Shown: one piece after another, positions 1,835-61,850 of the stretch
Layout of the letters: each line of letters opens with the position of its first letter
How positions within the stretch are numbered: position 1 is the stretch's first letter
Origin: an uncultured Clostridia bacterium
GTDB taxonomy: Bacteria; Bacillota; Clostridia; Oscillospirales; JAAYOS01
Assembly (NCBI GenBank): GCA_947630675.1
Contig: CANRIN010000002.1
Location: 1,531-65,530 of the forward strand
DNA length: 64,000 nucleotides
Direction: 5' to 3'
Position numbers and translations under genes: made by a program
Notes under the pieces: generated by a model
Database searches by the model: none
What the model was told of the DNA's origin: nothing
What the model saw: the letters and a program-made list of their open reading frames with translations, nothing else

Positions 1835-3001
1835 ATGCAGTCTACGGATACTTTGAACGAAAAGAAGAAAAAATCGAAGACAGCGCGTCCCGAACGGGTG
1901 ATGAGGCCGATGGACCTCCCGTTCCTGCTGCTCGTGATACTTCTGCTGTCGATAGGAACAATAATGATGTTCTCGGCGAGCTACGCCTCCGCATACTACA
2001 AGGAGTCGAGCTCGGCGCACTTCCTGATAAGGCAGGGCGCGGTCGGCGTCGCCGGCGTCGCGCTGATGCTCTTCATCAGCAGGATGAACTACCAGAGCTT
2101 CCGTATGCTGAGCTTCGGCGCACTCGCCGTCGCGGTAGTGCTGCTCGGACTGGTGCTCATCCCCGGCATCGGCAAGAAGGGCGGCGGCGCCACGCGGTGG
2201 CTGCACTTCGGCCCGATAAGCGTTCAGCCGAGCGAGATAGCGAAGCTCGCCATAATAATGACGTTTGCGACGATGGCCTCCGCCTTCCGCGAGAAGATGA
2301 AGACCTTCCGCTACGGCATACTCCCGTTTGCCGGCATACTCGCGGTGATATGCGGACTGATGGCGGCACAGCCGCACATCTCGGGAATGATACTCATAGC
2401 CGTCGTCGGCGGAACGCTGATGTTCGTAGGCGGCGTCCACTGGGGATGGTTCGCGGCGGTCGGCGCGATAGGCATAGTCGGGATATGGTTCATAATGACT
2501 AACATGAGCCACTCGATAGCGCGTCTTCAGATATGGCAGGACCCGTGGTCGGACGCGCAGGGGGACGGCTACCAGATAATCCAGTCGCTCTACGCCGTCG
2601 GCTCGGGCGGACTGCTCGGCCTCGGCATAGGCAAGAGCCGTCAGAAGTACCTCTACCTGCCGGAGCAGCAGAACGACTTCGTGTTTGCGATAATCTGCGA
2701 GGAGCTGGGGTTCGTCGGCGCGTGCGTCGTGCTCGTGCTCTTTGCCCTGCTCGTCATTCGCGGCTACTGGATAGCGGTAAAGGCGCGCGACAGATTCGGG
2801 TCGCTCCTTGCCGCCGGCGTCACGACGCTCTTTGGCGTGCAGGTGTTCCTCAATATCGCGGTCGTGACAAACCTCATACCCACCACCGGCGTGAGCCTGC
2901 CGTTCTTCAGTTACGGAGGCAGCGCGCTGCTCATTCAGCTCGTGGAGATGGGCATAGTCCTCAGTGTGTCACGGCAGATCCCCGCACAGCGGTCGGGCTG
3001 A
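1835..3001 (+). CDS. ftsW: SEDS-family peptidoglycan glycosyltransferase (FtsW/SpoVE type)
   Basis: 388 aa, multi-TM, with motifs QPSEIAKL, SLPFFSYGGSALL and NDFVFAIICEELG. Located between mraY and murG. Confidence 0.9.
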   Translation: MQSTDTLNEKKKKSKTARPERVMRPMDLPFLLLVILLLSIGTIMMFSASYASAYYKESSSAHFLIRQGAVGVAGVALMLFISRMNYQSFRMLSFGALAVAVVLLGLVLIPGIGKKGGGATRWLHFGPISVQPSEIAKLAIIMTFATMASAFREKMKTFRYGILPFAGILAVICGLMAAQPHISGMILIAVVGGTLMFVGGVHWGWFAAVGAIGIVGIWFIMTNMSHSIARLQIWQDPWSDAQGDGYQIIQSLYAVGSGGLLGLGIGKSRQKYLYLPEQQNDFVFAIICEELGFVGACVVLVLFALLVIRGYWIAVKARDRFGSLLAAGVTTLFGVQVFLNIAVVTNLIPTTGVSLPFFSYGGSALLIQLVEMGIVLSVSRQIPAQRSG

Positions 3002-3012
3002 GGAGGCGGAGC

Positions 3013-4146
3013 ATGAGAGTTATCTTTACCTGCGGCGGCACGGCGGGGCACATCAACCCGGCCATAGCCGTCGCCCGGATGGTCCTCGAGCGGCGTCCGT
3101 CGAGCGAGGTTTTGTTCGTGGGGGCTCAGGGCGCCATGGAGACGCAGCTTGTGCCGCGCGAGGGCTTCCACATCGAGACGGTGCGGATAGGTTCGTTTGC
3201 GCGGGGACTGAGCCCGGCGGCGATAAAGCACAACACGGAGGTCTTCTTCATGCGCCGAAAGGCGCTGAAGCGGGCAAAGGAGATAATAACGTCGTTTAAG
3301 CCGGACGTCGTGGTCGGCACCGGCGGGTTTGCAAGCTATCCCGCGGTAGCGGCGGCTCAGAAGCTCGGCATCCCGACGGCGATACATGAGTCGAACGTGA
3401 AGCCGGGTCTCACCACCTCGGTGCTCGCAAAGCACGCGGACAGGATAATGGTCGGCTTTGCCGAGGCAGCACGGCACTACAAGGAACCGGAGCGGACGGT
3501 CGTCACCGGCACGCCGGTGCGCGAGGAGTTCATCTTCGGCAGCCGCGAGCGGGCGCGCGCCGCGATGGGGATACCGCAGGACGAAAAGGTGGTCGTCAGC
3601 TACTGGGGAAGCCTCGGAGCGCGGGAGATGAACCGCACGATCGCAAATGTCATGCGCCTCGAGTGCGAGGACGGCGCTAGGTTCCGCCACATCCACTCCA
3701 CCGGCAGCTTCGGCTGGAAGTGGATGCCCGACCTCCTCAGGGAGATGGGCATCGACCTCGACCGTCAGCCTCAGATAGACATGCGGGAGTATATCTACAA
3801 CATGCCGGAGGCGGCGTGCGCCGCCGACCTGATGGTATGCCGGGGCGGCGCAAGCACCCTGAGCGAGCTTATTGCGGCGGCGAAGCCGGCGGTGATAATC
3901 CCCTCCCCGAATGTGGCGGAAAATCACCAGGAGGCGAATGCGAGAGCGCTGGAGCGCGCGGGCGGCGCGGTCGTGATAGTCGAAAATGACTGTACGCCCG
4001 AGCTGCTTTACCGAACGATAAAGGAACTTCTCGACGACCCGCCCCGCCTCGCGCGGATGAGCGCGGCGCTGCGGGAGATGGCCGTCCTCGACGCGGCGTC
4101 GAGGATATACGACACTATATGCGGGCTTGCGGACGGGGAGCGGTGA
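3013..4146 (+). CDS. murG: UDP-N-acetylglucosamine--N-acetylmuramyl-(pentapeptide) pyrophosphoryl-undecaprenol GlcNAc transferase
   Basis: Internal ATG of ORF 2533..4146, preceded by GAGGAGGCGGAGC. N-terminus MRVIFTCGGTAGHINPAIAV is the MurG glycine-rich motif. The upstream ORF extension overlaps ftsW and is not credible. Confidence 0.93.
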   Translation: MRVIFTCGGTAGHINPAIAVARMVLERRPSSEVLFVGAQGAMETQLVPREGFHIETVRIGSFARGLSPAAIKHNTEVFFMRRKALKRAKEIITSFKPDVVVGTGGFASYPAVAAAQKLGIPTAIHESNVKPGLTTSVLAKHADRIMVGFAEAARHYKEPERTVVTGTPVREEFIFGSRERARAAMGIPQDEKVVVSYWGSLGAREMNRTIANVMRLECEDGARFRHIHSTGSFGWKWMPDLLREMGIDLDRQPQIDMREYIYNMPEAACAADLMVCRGGASTLSELIAAAKPAVIIPSPNVAENHQEANARALERAGGAVVIVENDCTPELLYRTIKELLDDPPRLARMSAALREMAVLDAASRIYDTICGLADGER

Positions 4147-4268
4147 AGCATCGACTCCGCGCCGCGGGGTCTGAGGCGCGGCTCTGCCGGCCGTATTCAC
4201 CGTCTGTACTCTGAAAGAATAGTATGGTGCGGACGAAAGACCAAACCATTGTTCAATCGGAGGCGGAT

Positions 4269-5519
4269 ATGGGCACGCTAATTATCGACGGAGGAAAGAA
4301 GCTGTACGGCAGCGTGCGCGTACACGGCGCAAAGAACAGCGCGCTGCCGATACTTGCCGCCTGTGTATTAACGGACGGCGAATGTGTTCTGGAGGACTGC
4401 CCCGCTCTGCGGGACGTTGAGGCGACGGGGAGGATACTTTCACGCCTCGGAGCCGAGGTGCGGCGGGACGGAGACACCCTTGCGGTGCGCGCGGGGGACA
4501 TCGTCCGGCAGGACATACCGGACGCACAGATGCGGGAGATGCGCTCCTCGGTGACGTTTCTCGGCGCGCTCGCCGCGCGCTGCGGATACGCGAAGGTGAG
4601 CAGGCCGGGCGGATGCGAGCTCGGAGCGAGACCGATAGACCTCCACCTCGCGGGACTCCGGGCGCTCGGCGCGGAGATAGACGAGTCGGGCGGAAGGATA
4701 TGCTGCCGCGCGGAGAATATGCGCGGCGCGGACGTGACGCTGGCGTTCCCGAGCGTCGGCGCGACGGAGAACATCATGCTCGCCGCGACTGCGGCGAAGG
4801 GCAGGACGCGGATATTCAACCCGGCGCGCGAGCCGGAGATAGTCGATCTTCAGAATTTTCTGTGTGCGCTCGGCGCGGATGTGCGCGGCGCGGGCGGAAT
4901 GACTGTCGAGATAGAGGGAGGCTGTCCGCTGCACGGCGCGCGGCACAGGGTCATACCCGACCGGATAGTCGCGGCTACATACATGGCGGCAGTCGCCGCC
5001 GCAGGCGGCGCGGTACTCGTCGAGAACGCGCGGCCGGAGCAGGTGAGCGCCGTCAGCGCGGTGCTCCGCGAGGCCGGCGCGGACGTGTGCGAGCAGGGGA
5101 GCGTCATACAGGTGTCCGCCGCGAGGCGGCTCGCGGCGGTCCGGCCGATAAAGACGCAGCCCTATCCGGGATTTCCCACCGATGCTCAGTCGATAATGAT
5201 GAGCGTCATGGCGACGGCTCGCGGCGCGACGATGTTCGTAGAGAACATCTTCGAGAGCAGGTACCGCCACGCGGGGGAGCTCATGCGTATGGGCGCTGAG
5301 ATACGCGTGGAGGGCAGGGTCGCGCTCGTGCAGGGCGTGGAACGCCTTGCCGGGGCGGAGGTACACGCCACCGACCTTCGCGGCGGTGCCGGGCTCGTAG
5401 TCGCGGCGCTCGGCGCGGAGGGACGCACCCGTATCGGCAGCACCGAGTACATCGAGCGGGGATATTTCGGCCTGGAGGAGACGCTCCGTTCGCTCGGAGC
5501 GGACATAAGCCGGGAATAA
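4269..5519 (+). CDS. murA: UDP-N-acetylglucosamine 1-carboxyvinyltransferase
   Basis: Start at Met16 of the ORF, with GGAGG 5 nt upstream. Motifs GAKNSALPILAA, RPIDLHL and FPTDAQ are typical of MurA. Confidence 0.93.
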   Translation: MGTLIIDGGKKLYGSVRVHGAKNSALPILAACVLTDGECVLEDCPALRDVEATGRILSRLGAEVRRDGDTLAVRAGDIVRQDIPDAQMREMRSSVTFLGALAARCGYAKVSRPGGCELGARPIDLHLAGLRALGAEIDESGGRICCRAENMRGADVTLAFPSVGATENIMLAATAAKGRTRIFNPAREPEIVDLQNFLCALGADVRGAGGMTVEIEGGCPLHGARHRVIPDRIVAATYMAAVAAAGGAVLVENARPEQVSAVSAVLREAGADVCEQGSVIQVSAARRLAAVRPIKTQPYPGFPTDAQSIMMSVMATARGATMFVENIFESRYRHAGELMRMGAEIRVEGRVALVQGVERLAGAEVHATDLRGGAGLVVAALGAEGRTRIGSTEYIERGYFGLEETLRSLGADISRE

Positions 5520-57524: not shown

Positions 57525-59528
57525 TCAGGCGTTCTCCCGCCGGATGACGGCAGGGGAGCCGTCCGCGGGAATGGGAACGCTCTTGCCGGCAAAGCGGAGA
57601 GTGCCGCCGGGGCGCGTCGCCGAGGCGGACGCCTCGCCGGACTCCGCATCGAAGCGGACATGCACCTCGCCCTCGGGAAGCGGCACCGTCGCGTCGAAGC
57701 GGCGGTACATCCCGGGCTGCGGGGCGACGTCGAAGCTTGCGTAGCCGGCGTCCGTCGGGGCGACGCCCGCGACGTAGCGCCCGAGCAGGTATATCGGACC
57801 GCTGCCCCACGCGTGGCAGAGGCTCCTGCCGTAGGGGTCGCCGTACATGGCGTAGTGCTCCGCGCCCTGCTCGCGCGGGTCGAACTGCTCCCATATCGAC
57901 GTCGCGCCGAGCTCGAGCATCGGGTACCAGTAGTCGAGTATCATCCTCTGCGCGGAGACGACGTCCCCGAGGCGGCAGAGAGCCATGAGCTCGAAAAATT
58001 TGAAGTAGGGGGTGGTTATGGCGTCCACCGAGTCGTTGCGGAGCACGCGTTCCGCTATCGTCTCCGCCTTTTCGGGAGCGAAATCGTAGAGCACGGCGAA
58101 AATGTTCGCGTGGCGGGTGACATGCCGCCGTCCGGACACGAAACCGTCAATATACGCGCCCTGACCTTCGTCCCAGAAGCGCTCGTCGATGAGGGAGTGC
58201 AGCACCTCGGCCTCGCCCGCACGGACAGGAGAGGGACGTCCGGCGAGCGCCGAGAGCTTCTCCATTACGTCCATCGTCTTCCAGAGAAGTATCTGCTCCG
58301 CGCACTGCGGACCTTCGGAGTCGAAGGCGGCCCAGTCGATGAATATCCAGTCGCCGGGGCGGGAACAGACGAGCCCGTCCTCGTCGAGGCGGCCGTGAAG
58401 GAAGGAGTAAAGCGCCTCAGCGCGGTCGTAGACCTCGCGCACGAAGCCGCTGTCCCCGGTCGAGTACCAGTAGTCGTATATCGAGATGAGAAGGTACATC
58501 GTGTAGTCGTTTATGGTGTTGATATGCTGGAGGTAGGGCGGCTTGCCGAGGAGGGCGCGTATGGTGCGCTTCGTTATCTCCGGGTCGAAGTAGAGGTAGT
58601 TGTTTATCATGTAGGACTGGTACGCATCGCCGGACCAGACCCAGCGGTCGCGCTTGATGCCGTCCAGATAAAACTCGCGGCTGTTCAGGTGGAAGGTGTG
58701 ACGGCAGACGTCGAAGACGCGCTTCACCTCAGGCAGGTCGCAGTCGAAGGAGGCGCGGTCGGTGAGCGGCAGGTACTCATGGTCGAGCCGCACATGCTTT
58801 TCGCCGCCGGATATCCACGCGTAGCGGAGCGCGAAGGAGGGGAATGAGTAGCAGTCGGAGCCGTTCACCTCCTCGCGGAAGACGGCGCGGTCGTCGAGCG
58901 CTTCCGCCTCGCTCTCGCCGAGCCGGACGATGAGCGCGTCGGAGGGCAGGCAGCCCTCTATTTGCAGCGCGCCGAAGGTCTCCTCGCCGAAGTCGTAGAG
59001 ATACCCGTCGCCATCGGCGCGGCGGGTGACCGGCTCGAGGAGCCTGTGCGCGAAGGGGAAGACCTCCGGGTCGTCCGAGGCGGATTCATAGGCGGGGGTA
59101 CACGCCGCATTCGGGAATTCCATCCTGCCGCTTATGTCGCGGATAGCGTGGCTCGCGTGCCAGGTCTCGTCGGTGGAGAGAGCGCCGCAGTCGATGAATA
59201 TCGAGGGGAGCCCGCCGGGCTTCATGAGCTGGACGGTGACGTTGTACTCGCCCACGGGCAGAGTCAGCGGTGAGCCGGTGGCGGCGCGGTACTGAGTCGC
59301 ATGACGGAACTCGCCGCTCACTGCCTCCACCGAGCCGGGGGCGGTCGCATAGGCGGTGAAGGTGGTCTCCTCCGCAAGGGAGACATGCTTTGAAAACGCG
59401 ATGTTCGGGTAGGGCTGCGCGAGGTCCCATACGCAGGGGAGATGCACGCCGCGCTCGTAGCGCCGGGTGTGAAGCTTCAGGCTGTGATATATCTCGTAGT
59501 CGCCGGGGTACCATATCCATTTTGCCAT
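57525..59528 (-). CDS. six-hairpin glycoside hydrolase, alpha-L-rhamnosidase (GH78)-like
   Basis: 667 aa. N-terminus MAKWIWYPGDYE. The later blocks DGIKRDRWVWSGD and SLCHAWGSGP resemble the GH78 catalytic (alpha/alpha)6 domain. The family is recalled from memory, not searched. Confidence 0.55.
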   Translation of the reverse strand: MAKWIWYPGDYEIYHSLKLHTRRYERGVHLPCVWDLAQPYPNIAFSKHVSLAEETTFTAYATAPGSVEAVSGEFRHATQYRAATGSPLTLPVGEYNVTVQLMKPGGLPSIFIDCGALSTDETWHASHAIRDISGRMEFPNAACTPAYESASDDPEVFPFAHRLLEPVTRRADGDGYLYDFGEETFGALQIEGCLPSDALIVRLGESEAEALDDRAVFREEVNGSDCYSFPSFALRYAWISGGEKHVRLDHEYLPLTDRASFDCDLPEVKRVFDVCRHTFHLNSREFYLDGIKRDRWVWSGDAYQSYMINNYLYFDPEITKRTIRALLGKPPYLQHINTINDYTMYLLISIYDYWYSTGDSGFVREVYDRAEALYSFLHGRLDEDGLVCSRPGDWIFIDWAAFDSEGPQCAEQILLWKTMDVMEKLSALAGRPSPVRAGEAEVLHSLIDERFWDEGQGAYIDGFVSGRRHVTRHANIFAVLYDFAPEKAETIAERVLRNDSVDAITTPYFKFFELMALCRLGDVVSAQRMILDYWYPMLELGATSIWEQFDPREQGAEHYAMYGDPYGRSLCHAWGSGPIYLLGRYVAGVAPTDAGYASFDVAPQPGMYRRFDATVPLPEGEVHVRFDAESGEASASATRPGGTLRFAGKSVPIPADGSPAVIRRENA

Positions 59529-59661
59529 GATGTCTGCTCTCTTCCGGATATCGGCCGCGGGAGAATGTCCGCGCCGGAATATTAATTATATGTAGATTAT
59601 AGCATGCGGATGGGGAAAGGACAAGAAAGACACGGCGTCCGAAATAATTTGATTTTTGCTC

Positions 59662-59690
59662 TTGACAAAGCAGAAGCGCGGTGGTAATAT
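59662..59690 (+). promoter_or_regulatory. sigma-A promoter of the metY leader
   Basis: TTGACA (59662..59667), 17-nt spacer, TAATAT (59685..59690). Confidence 0.65.
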
Positions 59691-59736
59691 TTAACCAACC
59701 TGTTTGGTAGGTAATTTGAGACGGGAGGTGCGGAGC

Positions 59737-59844
59737 ATGCCGGCGGCTATCCGGGGTTTTGCAAGGGCGGATATGCGAATGCGGATACGGATGTGCTCCT
59801 GCCGCGCCGTGCGGCGGCTCCCTTGCGCCTGCTGTCCTTTTTAG
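59737..59844 (+). CDS. candidate Cys/Met-rich leader peptide (35 aa)
   Basis: GGGAGG lies 7 nt upstream. Translation is MPAAIRGFARADMRMRIRMCSCRAVRRLPCACCPF, with 5 Cys and 3 internal Met. A terminator follows 24 nt after the stop. The Arg-rich composition means it could be a chance GC-rich ORF. Confidence 0.35.
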   Translation: MPAAIRGFARADMRMRIRMCSCRAVRRLPCACCPF

Positions 59845-59867
59845 GGTATGATTTTTGTGCAGCGGTA

Positions 59868-59902
59868 CCGGGAGACTTTTGCGGGTCTCCCGGATCTATT
59901 TT
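59868..59902 (+). terminator. intrinsic terminator inside the metY 5' leader (attenuator)
   Basis: CCGGGAGAC-TTTTGCGG-GTCTCCCGG followed by ATCTATTTT. It lies between the promoter and the metY start. Confidence 0.7.
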
Positions 59903-60036
59903 ACAGGAGGCGGACGATGACAGACACTTTTGAAGAGCTTGTCCGGCGGAACTTCCGGTTCGGGCGAATGTGAGGGAAATGCGGTACACGACCCTGGCAT
60001 TTTGTCCGACTATACACATTTGAAAGGAAGATACCC

Positions 60037-61320
60037 ATGTCCGAATACAGATTTGAAACTTTACAGCTCCATGTGGGTCAGGAGCAGCCCGACCCCGCCA
60101 CCGACGCGCGCGCGGTGCCGATATACGCCACGACCTCTTACGTCTTCCATAACTGCGAGCACGCCGCGGCGCGCTTCGGCCTTGCGGACGCCGGAAACAT
60201 CTACGGACGCCTCACCAACTCCACGCAGGACGTGCTCGAGAAGCGCGTGGCGGCGCTCGAGGGCGGCGTCGCGGCGCTGGCGCTCGCCTCCGGTGCGGCG
60301 GCGATAACCTATACGCTCGAAGCCCTCGGCCAGAACGGCGGCCACTTCGTGGCACAGAAAACCATATACGGCGGCAGCTATAACCTCCTTGAACACACTC
60401 TCCCCAATTTCGGCATAACCGCTACGTTTGTCAATATCCACGACCTCGGGGAGGTGGAAGCCGCGATCCGGGAGAACACCCGCGCGATATACATAGAGAC
60501 GCTCGGAAACCCTAACAGCGATATCCCGGATATCGACGCGCTCGCGGAGCTCGCGCACAGGCACGGCCTTCCGCTCGTCGTAGACAACACGTTCGGAACG
60601 CCCTATCTCATCCGTCCGATAGAGCACGGTGCGGACATCGTCGTCCACTCCGCGACGAAGTTCCTCGGCGGACACGGCACGACGCTCGGAGGCATCATCG
60701 TCGACGGAGGCAGTTTCGACTGGAAGGCGAGCGGGAAGTATCCTGCCATTGCGGATCCGAACCCGAGCTACCACGGCATCTCGTTTGCGGACGCTGCCGG
60801 TCCGGCGGCGTTTGCGACCTACGTCCGCGCGATACTTCTCAGGGATACCGGCGCGACTATTTCGCCGTTTGCGGCGTTCCTGCTGCTCCAGGGCATAGAG
60901 ACGCTGTCGCTGCGCGTCGAGCGCCACGTCGAGAATACTCTGAAGGTCGTCGACTTCCTCGCGCACCATCCGCTTGTGGAGAAGGTGAATCATCCGTCGC
61001 TGCCGGACCATCCGGACCACGCGCTGTATGAGAAGTATTTCCCGAACGGCGGCGGCTCGATCTTTACCTTCGAGATAAAGGGCGGCGTGAAGGAAGCGCA
61101 CAGGTTCATAGACAGCCTTGAGATATTCTCGCTGCTTGCGAACGTGGCGGACGTCAAGAGCCTTGTCATACATCCGGCGACCACGACGCACAGCCAGCTC
61201 TCCGAGGAGGAGCTTGCGGATCAGGATATAAAACCGAACACCATACGCCTGTCGATAGGCACCGAGCACATCGACGACCTGATAGCAGACCTCGAGAAGG
61301 GCTTTGCGGCTATAAAGTAG
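60037..61320 (+). CDS. metY: O-acetylhomoserine aminocarboxypropyltransferase / sulfhydrylase
   Basis: 427 aa. N-terminus FETLQLH.GQ..D..T.ARAVPIY.T.SY. SATKFLGGHG carries the PLP lysine. Confidence 0.93.
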   Translation: MSEYRFETLQLHVGQEQPDPATDARAVPIYATTSYVFHNCEHAAARFGLADAGNIYGRLTNSTQDVLEKRVAALEGGVAALALASGAAAITYTLEALGQNGGHFVAQKTIYGGSYNLLEHTLPNFGITATFVNIHDLGEVEAAIRENTRAIYIETLGNPNSDIPDIDALAELAHRHGLPLVVDNTFGTPYLIRPIEHGADIVVHSATKFLGGHGTTLGGIIVDGGSFDWKASGKYPAIADPNPSYHGISFADAAGPAAFATYVRAILLRDTGATISPFAAFLLLQGIETLSLRVERHVENTLKVVDFLAHHPLVEKVNHPSLPDHPDHALYEKYFPNGGGSIFTFEIKGGVKEAHRFIDSLEIFSLLANVADVKSLVIHPATTTHSQLSEEELADQDIKPNTIRLSIGTEHIDDLIADLEKGFAAIK

Positions 61321-61375
61321 GATTGCGGCTCGCGGAGAATGCTCCGCGCCGGACGTGACGGGAGGAGAGAAGGCT

Positions 61376-61792
61376 TTGGCGACGATTTCCACAAGGGGGC
61401 GGTATGCGCTCCGCGTTCTGCTTGACCTCGCCGAGAGGCGGGAGAGCGGATATGTTCCGATGAAGGAGGTCGCTCTGCGGCAGGGGATATCCCTCAAATA
61501 TATTGAACGGATACTTCCGTCGCTCGTGGCGGCGGGATACGTGGAGGGAGTCCACGGCAAGGGAGGCGGGTACCGCTTCACGGGTGAGCCGGGCAGTATA
61601 GCCGTCGTCGATATACTGCGGCTCACCGAGGGAGACCTGGCGCCGGTGGCGTGCCTGAAGAGCGGAGCGGAGCCCTGCCCGAGAGCGGCGGAGTGCAGGA
61701 CGCTCGCTATGTGGAAAAAATTCTACGAGACGATAAACGACTTCTTCGGTAATATCACGTTGAAAGACCTTCTGGAAAAGACCGCGCCGTGA
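61376..61792 (+). CDS. Rrf2 family transcriptional regulator (CymR/IscR-like)
   Basis: TTG 61376 after GGGAGGAGAG (or GTG 61355). STRGRYALRVLLDLA wHTH. The Cys cluster C..C.....C sits in LAPVACLKSGAEPCPRAAEC. Confidence 0.88.
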   Translation: MATISTRGRYALRVLLDLAERRESGYVPMKEVALRQGISLKYIERILPSLVAAGYVEGVHGKGGGYRFTGEPGSIAVVDILRLTEGDLAPVACLKSGAEPCPRAAECRTLAMWKKFYETINDFFGNITLKDLLEKTAP

Positions 61793-61814
61793 TTTTACGG
61801 CGCAGAAACAAAAC

Positions 61815-61850
61815 CGGAGCCGGTACGCTAAGCGTACCGGCTCCGTTCTT
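61815..61850 (+). terminator. terminator-like 14-bp hairpin after the Rrf2 gene
   Basis: CGGAGCCGGTACGC-TAA-GCGTACCGGCTCCG followed by TTCTT. Confidence 0.6.

Follow-up and report, generated by a model that had tools for sequence, protein, structure and literature searches.

Introduction

Genes for methionine metabolism in Firmicutes are usually controlled by the S-box (SAM-I, for S-adenosylmethionine) riboswitch and by the Met T-box, as a study of 2004 is said to have set out. We know of no leader peptide rich in methionine or cysteine codons in this phylum. Leader peptides of another kind act on translation: in the ermC, ermB, cat and cmlA leaders, a ribosome paused at a fixed codon covers the RNA strand that hides the Shine-Dalgarno (SD) sequence, and the sequence of the peptide matters; pauses of the ermC type need an antibiotic in the exit tunnel. 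Other nascent peptides respond to metabolites. TnaC senses tryptophan and SpeFL ornithine, and the MTO1 region of Arabidopsis CGS1, which responds to SAM, belongs to the methionine synthesis pathway. In mycobacteria, ribosomes stalled on polycysteine upstream open reading frames (uORFs) block the formation of a structure that sequesters the downstream ribosome-binding site (RBS) (Canestrari et al., bioRxiv 10.1101/834739). Here we analyze the leader of metY, the gene for O-acetylhomoserine sulfhydrylase (homocysteine synthase), in a stretch of 64,000 nucleotides (nt) from an uncultured Clostridia bacterium (GenBank assembly GCA_947630675.1, contig CANRIN010000002.1, positions 1,531 to 65,530 of the forward strand). 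This whole stretch, which has a GC content of 62.5%, is called the window below, and all coordinates are positions within it.

The metY leader of the window carries two short uORFs, uORF1 and uORF2, with an intrinsic terminator between them. From the comparisons described below, we consider it rather probable that the leader comprises two ribosome-read sensors in series, located behind a promoter with a probable repressor site. An initial annotation of the window had proposed ribosome-stalling attenuation on uORF1, possibly layered with control by a repressor. The comparative evidence, namely a conserved uORF1 and a covarying terminator, indicates that this was the right kind of reading for uORF1, and the layering with a repressor is likely to hold as well.

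Results

Conservation of uORF2 and its association with methionine genes

uORF2 (59917..59973, + strand) consists of 18 codons encoding MTDTFEELVRRNFRFGRM, followed by TGA, and has the SD sequence AGGAGG at 59905..59910. The initial annotation had placed it here, with the same SD sequence, as a side feature of the leader; its presence and position stood, its minor rank did not, since by sequence comparison uORF2 is the best conserved and most unusual element of the leader.

For comparison, 80 metY loci from genomes and 80 from metagenomes were fetched. They belong to Clostridia-type metagenome-assembled genomes (MAGs) of gut or rumen, and their MetY proteins are 80-91% identical to that of the window, for which an exact-protein look-up gave no match on record. 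When the window leader was compared with 80 loci by blastn, 16 matches were obtained, almost all of them within the uORF2 region; the exceptions were L029, L034 and L002, which reach back over the terminator, and L031, which matched at the promoter and palindrome. A strict uORF2 motif, [NH][FY]R[FY]GRM, was present in 55 of the 153 usable metY leaders, on the + strand and upstream of metY every time, and was found nowhere else in the loci or in the window. The distance from uORF2 to metY was 31-108 nt.

The consensus of uORF2 is M-x3-FEKLVRANFRFGRM, and that of the peptide x4-FExLVRxNFR[F/C]GRM. Statistics were taken over 47 distinct copies, or over 83 distinct sequences once the NFRCGRM variant, which occurs in Faecalibacterium among others, was included. 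Of the 47 distinct relatives, 45 have an SD-like element before uORF2, at a median spacing of 7 nt, and 43 use ATG as the start codon. Methionine is codon 18 in 81 of the 83 sequences and is directly preceded by CGA in 82 of them. In the window, this near-invariant CGA-ATG pair (Arg17-Met18; 59965..59970, + strand) is the proposed site of a ribosome pause. CGA is the rarest arginine codon of these organisms, accounting for none of the 92 arginine codons in four genes of the window and for 2.6% in metY of the relatives, and it is reportedly read slowly, through I:A wobble. Its presence before Met in 82 of 83 sequences suggests that the codon pair is constrained beyond the amino acids it encodes. 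Downstream of Met18 the reading frame either stops, usually at UGA, or continues into a short tail that often begins with Cys; the codon following Met18 is UGA in 19 of the 83 sequences and a Cys, Tyr, Leu or Arg codon in most members.

Elsewhere in uORF2, the pattern of change is that of a coding sequence. Entropy at codon positions 1, 2 and 3 is 0.51, 0.31 and 1.12 bits, respectively, and differences from the consensus comprise 167 synonymous and 87 non-synonymous codons. Invariant residues are encoded by many codons (five for Leu, five for Arg at -8, five for Arg at -4 and four for Gly), and the synonymous turnover includes switches between AGA and CGN, which are two-base changes.

A profile built from 36 leader peptides was then used in a search independent of metY. 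It matched 193 small proteins, all unnamed or labeled 'hypothetical', with E-values down to 2e-14 and with no Pfam domain among the matches listed. Six members of the family were looked up by exact peptide sequence, so that their choice was not biased by metY. Five of them lie 90-130 nt upstream of a gene for a Cys_Met_Meta_PP protein of 427-429 amino acids, which is metY. The sixth, P0044, lies upstream of an operon with the domains ABC_tran+NIL, BPD_transp_1 and Lipoprotein_9, which is the methionine importer operon metNIQ. uORF2 is associated exclusively with metY and metNIQ, and its occurrence before metNIQ links its signal with methionine.

In L171 and L172, the uORF2 family is represented at 2501..2629 by a peptide (MKNYFTQLLRNNFRCGRMFYSRT...) encoded before metNIQ-type genes of a methionine ATP-binding cassette (ABC) transporter at 2819..5129; these two loci keep an antiterminator-terminator pair, CUCCCGGAC and GUCCGGGAG. 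In L063, labeled as a Treponema sp. MAG, a member of the leader peptide family (MKFYFEKLVRENFRNGRMRACCLFC) lies at about -220..-142 from metY in a contig binned as spirochaete, and several loci labeled Prevotella, Alloprevotella or Bacteroides carry a Clostridia-like metY. Mis-binning or horizontal transfer could possibly account for these taxon labels.

Since the peptide is conserved and gene callers predict members of the family as small proteins, one could suppose that the uORF2 product is a small protein acting in trans, with MetY or the Rrf2 regulator encoded downstream as possible targets, and that uORF2 is not a cis-acting leader. We regard this as very improbable. uORF2 always stands in the 5' leader, within the 31-108 nt given above of the gene that it would regulate; it precedes metY as well as metNIQ, operons that serve one pathway but are not related to each other; it overlaps an RNA strand that pairs with the SD sequence or forms an antiterminator, as described below; and in its short form it has merely 18 residues.

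Complementarity between uORF2 and the metY ribosome-binding site

In the short form of the leader, to which the window belongs, the last eight codons of uORF2 are complementary to the metY RBS. The anti-SD segment of the window occupies 59952..59972 (+ strand), where CTTCC at 59952..59956 pairs with GGAAG; the partner of GGTTCGGGCGAATG and CGAATGTG is the stretch that precedes the SD sequence. The 3' partner strand and RBS (59997..60030, + strand) contain CATTTTGTCCGAC, with CACATTTG at 60015..60022 and the metY SD sequence GGAAG at 60026..60030. In short forms generally, AAUUUCC-G-UUUCG of uORF2 pairs with CGAAAGGAAAUU, and a CACAUUC box located a few bases upstream of the SD sequence is the partner of CGAAUGUG.

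Since column-wise covariation was uninformative for this helix, it was assessed by energy-based swap and recoding tests. The duplex of a 33-nt segment of uORF2 with the last 40 nt ahead of the metY ATG has a mean energy of -16.1 kcal/mol, compared with -11.8 kcal/mol for synonymous recodings of the same peptide (Wilcoxon p=2e-11) and with -13.1 kcal/mol when partners were swapped between loci (p=7e-6). For the window, the duplex values were -20.4 vs. -14.3 +/- 2.5 kcal/mol. RNAalifold, applied to 25 diverse leaders, returned a sole consensus helix, that of UUUCC/UUC of uORF2 with GAA/GGAAA of the SD region; a double change from UA to CG is found in this helix in the window and in L011.

The position of the helix relative to the proposed pause site suggests how a ribosome might act on it. 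The anti-SD sequence CTTCC lies 9-13 nt 5' of the CGA codon at 59965, which would occupy the P site. In partition-function folding, uORF2 accounts for 68% of the pairing of the SD sequence in the window. Across the leaders, the predicted median probability that the SD sequence is unpaired rises from 0.24 in the free RNA to 0.65 when a ribosome footprint of assumed size is placed with its P site on CGA and its A site on AUG.

Other members, found before both metY and metNIQ and present in a strain of Faecalibacterium prausnitzii, have a longer reading frame and a different downstream architecture. In these long forms, a strand CUCCCGGRC begins about 8 nt past the AUG of codon 18. Its partner is GUCCGGGAG, which serves as the 5' arm of a terminator further on, and the antiterminator so formed is the minimum-energy fold. 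Many long-form tails are devoid of any Met or Cys, so the conserved core must be the sensor. A ribosome at AUG18 would free most of the CUCCCGGRC strand, and a ribosome that moves on would cover it; in this model, the same pause on uORF2 would switch expression on in both architectures.

The evidence on uORF2 bears on a further explanation, in which it is a true arrest peptide that senses methionine, SAM or homocysteine in the exit tunnel and not the supply of Met-tRNA. Conservation extends over the whole 18-residue peptide, which classical hunger-codon leaders do not need, and the length up to the predicted stall codon is fixed. The short form, moreover, often has the stop codon UGA next, and in tnaC a UGA directly follows the stall codon. 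The direction of control would nevertheless be wrong, because such a ligand has to switch biosynthetic and uptake genes off, yet arrest at codon 18 would switch them on in both forms. The codon after Met is, furthermore, not conserved as a stop, and the invariant element is the Met codon itself, as a sensor of tRNA charging needs. We therefore consider direct ligand sensing of this type quite improbable.

The Met/Cys-rich leader peptide family of uORF1

uORF1 (59737..59844, + strand) is a Met/Cys-rich frame of 35 codons encoding MPAAIRGFARADMRMRIRMCSCRAVRRLPCACCPF. Its SD sequence, GGGAGG, is located at 59723..59728 and ends 8 nt before the ATG. In agreement with the initial annotation, it contains five Cys codons (59794, 59800, 59824, 59830 and 59833) and three internal Met codons (59773, 59779 and 59791). 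Its end is separated by 23 nt from the terminator hairpin. The annotation had also cautioned that the peptide might come from a random GC-rich ORF. This worry could be set aside: among the 156 ORFs of the window that start with ATG and encode 25-60 amino acids in any of the six frames, uORF1 alone has at least five Met/Cys per 14 residues.

Both uORFs of the window contain the CGA-ATG pair, in uORF1 at 59776..59781 and in uORF2 at 59965..59970, although none of the arginine codons in the four neighboring genes is CGA.

At the position of uORF1, 13 relatives carry an ORF before the same terminator, with 5-11 Met/Cys per 14-residue window (the maximum of 11 being that of L029) and with 6-9 internal Met codons, vs. 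3 in the window. Examples of these sequences are MKKSGFTTIMMEMCMQFYCMCM... and MIKPYTTIIMMWMCMWICQMCMC..., and a further example from the family is ..TIMMEMCMWTCGMCM... The order of elements in the relatives is uORF1, a small hairpin over its stop codon, a terminator consisting of CCGGGAGACTTTATCGGAGTCTTCCGG and a T-run, and uORF2. In a MAFFT alignment, DMRMRIRMCSC of the window stands opposite MMEMCMW.C of the relatives, in which the Met/Cys tract is conserved as codons; it appears that several Met codons became Arg codons in the GC-rich window copy. A search with a profile of these peptides matched 198 unnamed small proteins with E-values down to 1e-18, and none of the matches listed has a name or a Pfam domain. 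Two of these proteins, P0128 and P0235, were looked up; both are encoded about 200 nt upstream of metY, with a terminator and uORF2 in between.

A third variant of the leader peptide was noticed in loci labeled Lachnospiraceae (e.g., MARQNIVWNGNLMCCCRMCNSRAFYMVR), where a Met/Cys cluster replaces the N-terminal conserved block and R-M-C-x-SRA is retained. Its leaders lie within 400 nt of metY in L028, L037, L068, L078, L109, L110, L113 and L130.

The intrinsic terminator that the initial annotation had described at 59868..59902 (+ strand) was confirmed. Its stem, CCGGGAGACTT/GGGTCTCCCGG, forms an 11-bp hairpin (59868..59893, -18.5 kcal/mol) followed by ATCTATTTTA, with ATCTATTTT as a weak T-run, and it is homologous to the CCGGGAGACTTTATCGGAGTCTTCCGG-T-run terminator of the relatives. 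Across the relatives, 91% of the helix is paired, with six pairs altered on both sides, a value reached by 0 of 500 shuffles.

UUUCCGAUAUGUUCUCC, from the 3' part of the relatives' uORF1, is complementary to the 5' arm and loop of the terminator. In this register, 92.9% of the cells are paired, vs. at most 65% in slid controls; double changes occur in two pairs only. L047 and L069 have both strands re-designed with complementarity kept (-17.3 kcal/mol, reached by 0 of 200 shuffles, and -18.4 kcal/mol, reached by 5 of 200, respectively). UUUCCGAUAUGUUCUCC is retained despite being read in two frames, L013 and L029 differing from the others. The block TTTCCGATATGTTCTCCATCTCA gives ..RLFPICSPSQ.. 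in one frame and ..FISDMFSIS.. in the other when L013 and L029 are compared with L004, L007, L016, L022 and L034. The use of two frames for the same block indicates that conservation in the 3' part of uORF1 acts on the RNA and not on the peptide.

Searches for riboswitches and T-boxes

The initial annotation had seen neither a SAM-I core nor a convincing T-box in the leader, and this holds. No Rfam family matched anywhere in the window at the gathering score, and thus no riboswitch over 59700..59900; a scan of 59550..60100 at E<=10 returned only noise, with no SAM or T-box match. Among 40 related metY loci that were also scanned, no riboswitch or T-box family covered the metY leader. T-box leaders at the Rfam gathering score do occur in two of the loci, L034 (198..448) and L040 (181..433), more than 1.9 kb upstream of metY and ahead of another gene. 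One sequence, GCGGUACCGGGAG, resembles a T-box and was tried as such; it was rejected, as no T-box model scores there even at E<=10. References given in PMC2965389 also point to the S-box and the Met T-box as the elements that commonly control met genes in Firmicutes.

These results bear on the idea that the leader is an RNA-only element, either an undescribed riboswitch or a protein-binding RNA, in which both ORFs are incidental. The leader does fold somewhat better than shuffles (z = -2.4), and constraint at the RNA level is seen in both uORFs, in uORF1 in the 3' part that is read in two frames and in uORF2 in CGAAUGUG, which is nearly invariant as RNA. Against a purely RNA-level element, however, we count the three-base periodicity of uORF2 and its codon turnover at invariant residues, AGA/CGN switches included. 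The start codon, SD sequence and 18-codon length of uORF2 are also constant, conservation of the Met/Cys tract in uORF1 is at the level of codons, and no Rfam model matches. An RNA-only element is, in our view, scarcely credible.

Promoter, candidate operator and neighboring genes

The promoter noted in the initial annotation at 59662..59690 (+ strand) was upheld. It is of the sigma-70 type (TTGACA-17-TAATAT; 10 of 12 matches), is extended by a TG upstream of the -10 hexamer, and has a layout that recurs in the relatives. Directly past the -10 hexamer lies a near-palindrome, ACCAACCTGTTTGGTAGGT (59694..59712), which is a candidate operator. Related palindromes are present in 81 of 152 metY leaders, as CCTATTGACAAGGTAGG over the -35 hexamer and as ACCAACCTAAACGGTAGGTAA after the -10 hexamer. 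The density of this class is 1.57 per kb in the 152 leaders vs. 0.025 per kb in the remainder of these loci, an enrichment of about 60-fold. The palindrome at 59694..59712 is thus likely to be a repressor operator.

metY itself occupies 60037..61320 (+ strand; TIGR01326, 622.5 bits against a cutoff of 495.1) and is the gene that the leader would regulate. A gene for an Rrf2-family regulator (61355..61792, + strand) begins 34 nt past its end, with no + strand terminator predicted in the gap. The regulator had been called an Rrf2 protein resembling CymR. Its membership in the Rrf2 superfamily is borne out (TIGR00738, 123.8 bits), while its scores stay below the equivalog cutoffs of both CymR (82 bits vs. 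195) and IscR (104 vs. 208), so that by these models it is an Rrf2-superfamily protein and not a CymR or IscR equivalog. As a guess, this protein may be the one that binds the candidate operator, and a predicted Rrf2 repressor may then form a third layer of control on metY.

On the other side of the leader, a divergent promoter-like site (TTGTCC-17-TATAAT, 59596..59624, - strand) faces a gene of 667 amino acids (57525..59528, - strand) for which no NCBIfam match was found. Directly beyond the Rrf2 gene, the minus strand carries two strong sites with a hairpin and a T-run (61782..61845); they are probably the terminators of a convergent downstream unit and may act bidirectionally.

Discussion

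The two sensors proposed for the metY leader could operate as follows. In the first stage, when charged tRNA-Met or tRNA-Cys is scarce, a ribosome would stall in the Met/Cys tract of uORF1, the downstream RNA would refold without the hairpin at 59868..59893, and RNA polymerase would read on. With good supply, the ribosome would reach the stop codon of uORF1 and transcription would end at about 59902. In the second stage, the last eight codons of uORF2 would pair with the SD region of metY and hold it closed. A ribosome awaiting Met-tRNA at CGA-AUG would cover the anti-SD strand and leave the RBS open, so that metY would be translated when methionine is short; with ample methionine, the ribosome would terminate at once and the helix would reclose. 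CGA, together with the conserved nascent peptide, would probably deepen the pause. We infer from the sequences both that ribosomes stall at these codons and that regulation runs in this direction.

Several observations weigh against two working sensors in the window, most of them against the first stage. The T-run ATCTATTTT is interrupted and weak. The initial annotation had cautioned that no clear antiterminator could be made out, and for the window this stands: the best candidate, with the 5' strand TGCGGCGGCTCCCT at 59810..59823 (+ strand) and its partner CGGGAGACTTTTGC within the terminator, is not established, as its energy of -13.5 kcal/mol is no better than that of shuffles, 50 of 200 of which do as well. 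Folds of the window with a ribosome footprint at each Met/Cys codon all retain the terminator. In the antiterminator register of the relatives, the window row pairs at 7 of 13 positions (counted from the alignment) and accounts for most of the unpaired cells. The genome and metagenome scans gave no MetY relative above 91% identity to that of the window, and hence no near-identical leader on which its antiterminator could be tested. By sequence, the uORF1 of the window is the GC-rich and weakest copy of its family, and with three Met codons and an interrupted T-run the first stage may be weak or decaying here. As for the second stage, the sensor, with its one Met codon, is unusually small compared with classical leaders. 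The predicted probability of an unpaired SD sequence in the window rises only from 0.26 in the free RNA to 0.49 with a ribosome on CGA-AUG, five loci with uORF2 (L004, L007, L016, L036 and L069) are devoid of anti-SD complementarity, and the anti-SD helix shows little column-wise covariation, being highly conserved and shifting its register with the choice between TTC and TTT and between AAT and AAC codons. Finally, every relative is a MAG or a metagenome contig.

Some of these points would fit a different explanation, namely that uORF1 and the hairpin of the window are a decaying relic, that control lies with uORF2 and the repressor site, and that the hairpin is at most a constitutive partial terminator or a stabilizing structure. 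The low number of internal Met codons (3 vs. 6-9 in the relatives), the weak T-run and the lack of a significant antiterminator in the window all agree with decay, and many relatives carry uORF2 without uORF1 (e.g., L003, L009 and L014). Against a relic, the frame is intact, has a good SD sequence and is the most Met/Cys-rich ORF of the window, it keeps CGA-ATG at 59776..59781 in a window whose genes avoid CGA, and the 11-bp hairpin is fully intact. We consider decay unlikely and continue to favor two sensors in series.

A broader proposal can be made for uORF2 in particular. uORF2 may be a new nascent-chain arrest module that acts in the exit tunnel and, with a CGA decoded by I:A wobble in the P site, slows the acceptance of Met-tRNA, which would turn one Met codon into a sensitive gauge of the methionine supply, or else senses methionine or SAM directly. 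Wired to a terminator and antiterminator in the long form and to SD sequestration in the short form, it would constitute a ribosome-read methionine regulon in gut Clostridia, Faecalibacterium included. We put this proposal forward tentatively.

The presence of translated leader peptides in this locus is of interest because S-box riboswitches and T-boxes are the textbook controls of Met/Cys genes in Firmicutes. The carriers are gut Clostridia of a large group, with Faecalibacterium, Oscillospiraceae and Acutalibacteraceae among its members. If the proposed mechanism is true, methionine joins the short list of amino acids that are sensed by leader peptides, and a starvation sensor of the uORF2 design, assisted by its nascent chain, would be of interest for research on ribosome stalling. 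In addition, about 390 clusters of small proteins that are now unnamed or 'hypothetical' could be re-labeled as met leader peptides. A literature search gave no description of the uORF2 motif or of either peptide and no Met or Cys leader peptide in Firmicutes, subscription journals being mostly outside the search, so that absence from it is not proof.

A comparison with the known systems places the metY leader among several of them. It resembles the S-box and the Met T-box in its position before metY- or metNIQ-type genes, in its output (a terminator or SD sequestration) and in its physiological purpose, and it differs in that the sensor is a translated ORF and not an aptamer, with no matching Rfam model. 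uORF1 resembles trpL, hisL, pheL, leuL, thrL and ilvL of Proteobacteria and the his leader of bacilli (PMC2965389) in being short, translated and enriched in end-product codons, with a terminator before the biosynthetic gene, and in its relatives a candidate competing pairing engages the 5' arm of the terminator. Unlike in these attenuators, the amino acids of uORF1 are Met and Cys, and no antiterminator could be demonstrated for the window copy; uORF2 departs further from them, with its single regulatory Met codon, its conserved peptide and no terminator of its own in the window.

With the polycysteine uORFs of mycobacteria (10.1101/834739), uORF2 would share both the reading of sulfur amino acid supply on a short upstream ORF and the mechanism proposed here. 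The mycobacterial uORFs, however, are leaderless, contain runs of Cys codons and encode unconserved peptides, whereas uORF2 has its own SD sequence, 18 conserved residues and one Met after CGA, and the phylum differs. As in the translational attenuation of ermC, ermB, cat and cmlA, a pause on uORF2 would unmask the SD sequence of the downstream gene, but unlike in the ermC type the likely trigger is a shortage of Met-tRNA and no drug is involved. In common with TnaC, SpeFL and CGS1, uORF2 has a conserved nascent peptide, a fixed predicted stall position and a gene of an amino acid pathway downstream. It differs in that no sequence similarity to them was seen, though no direct comparison was run, and in that control would run in the wrong direction here if a ligand induced the arrest. 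The conservation of uORF2 extends beyond the regulatory codons to its amino acid sequence, as is expected of arrest peptides (SecM, TnaC, SpeFL, ErmBL). What sets uORF2 apart from all of these systems is the joint occurrence of peptide conservation, constant length, one lone Met codon and a rare codon that is invariant.

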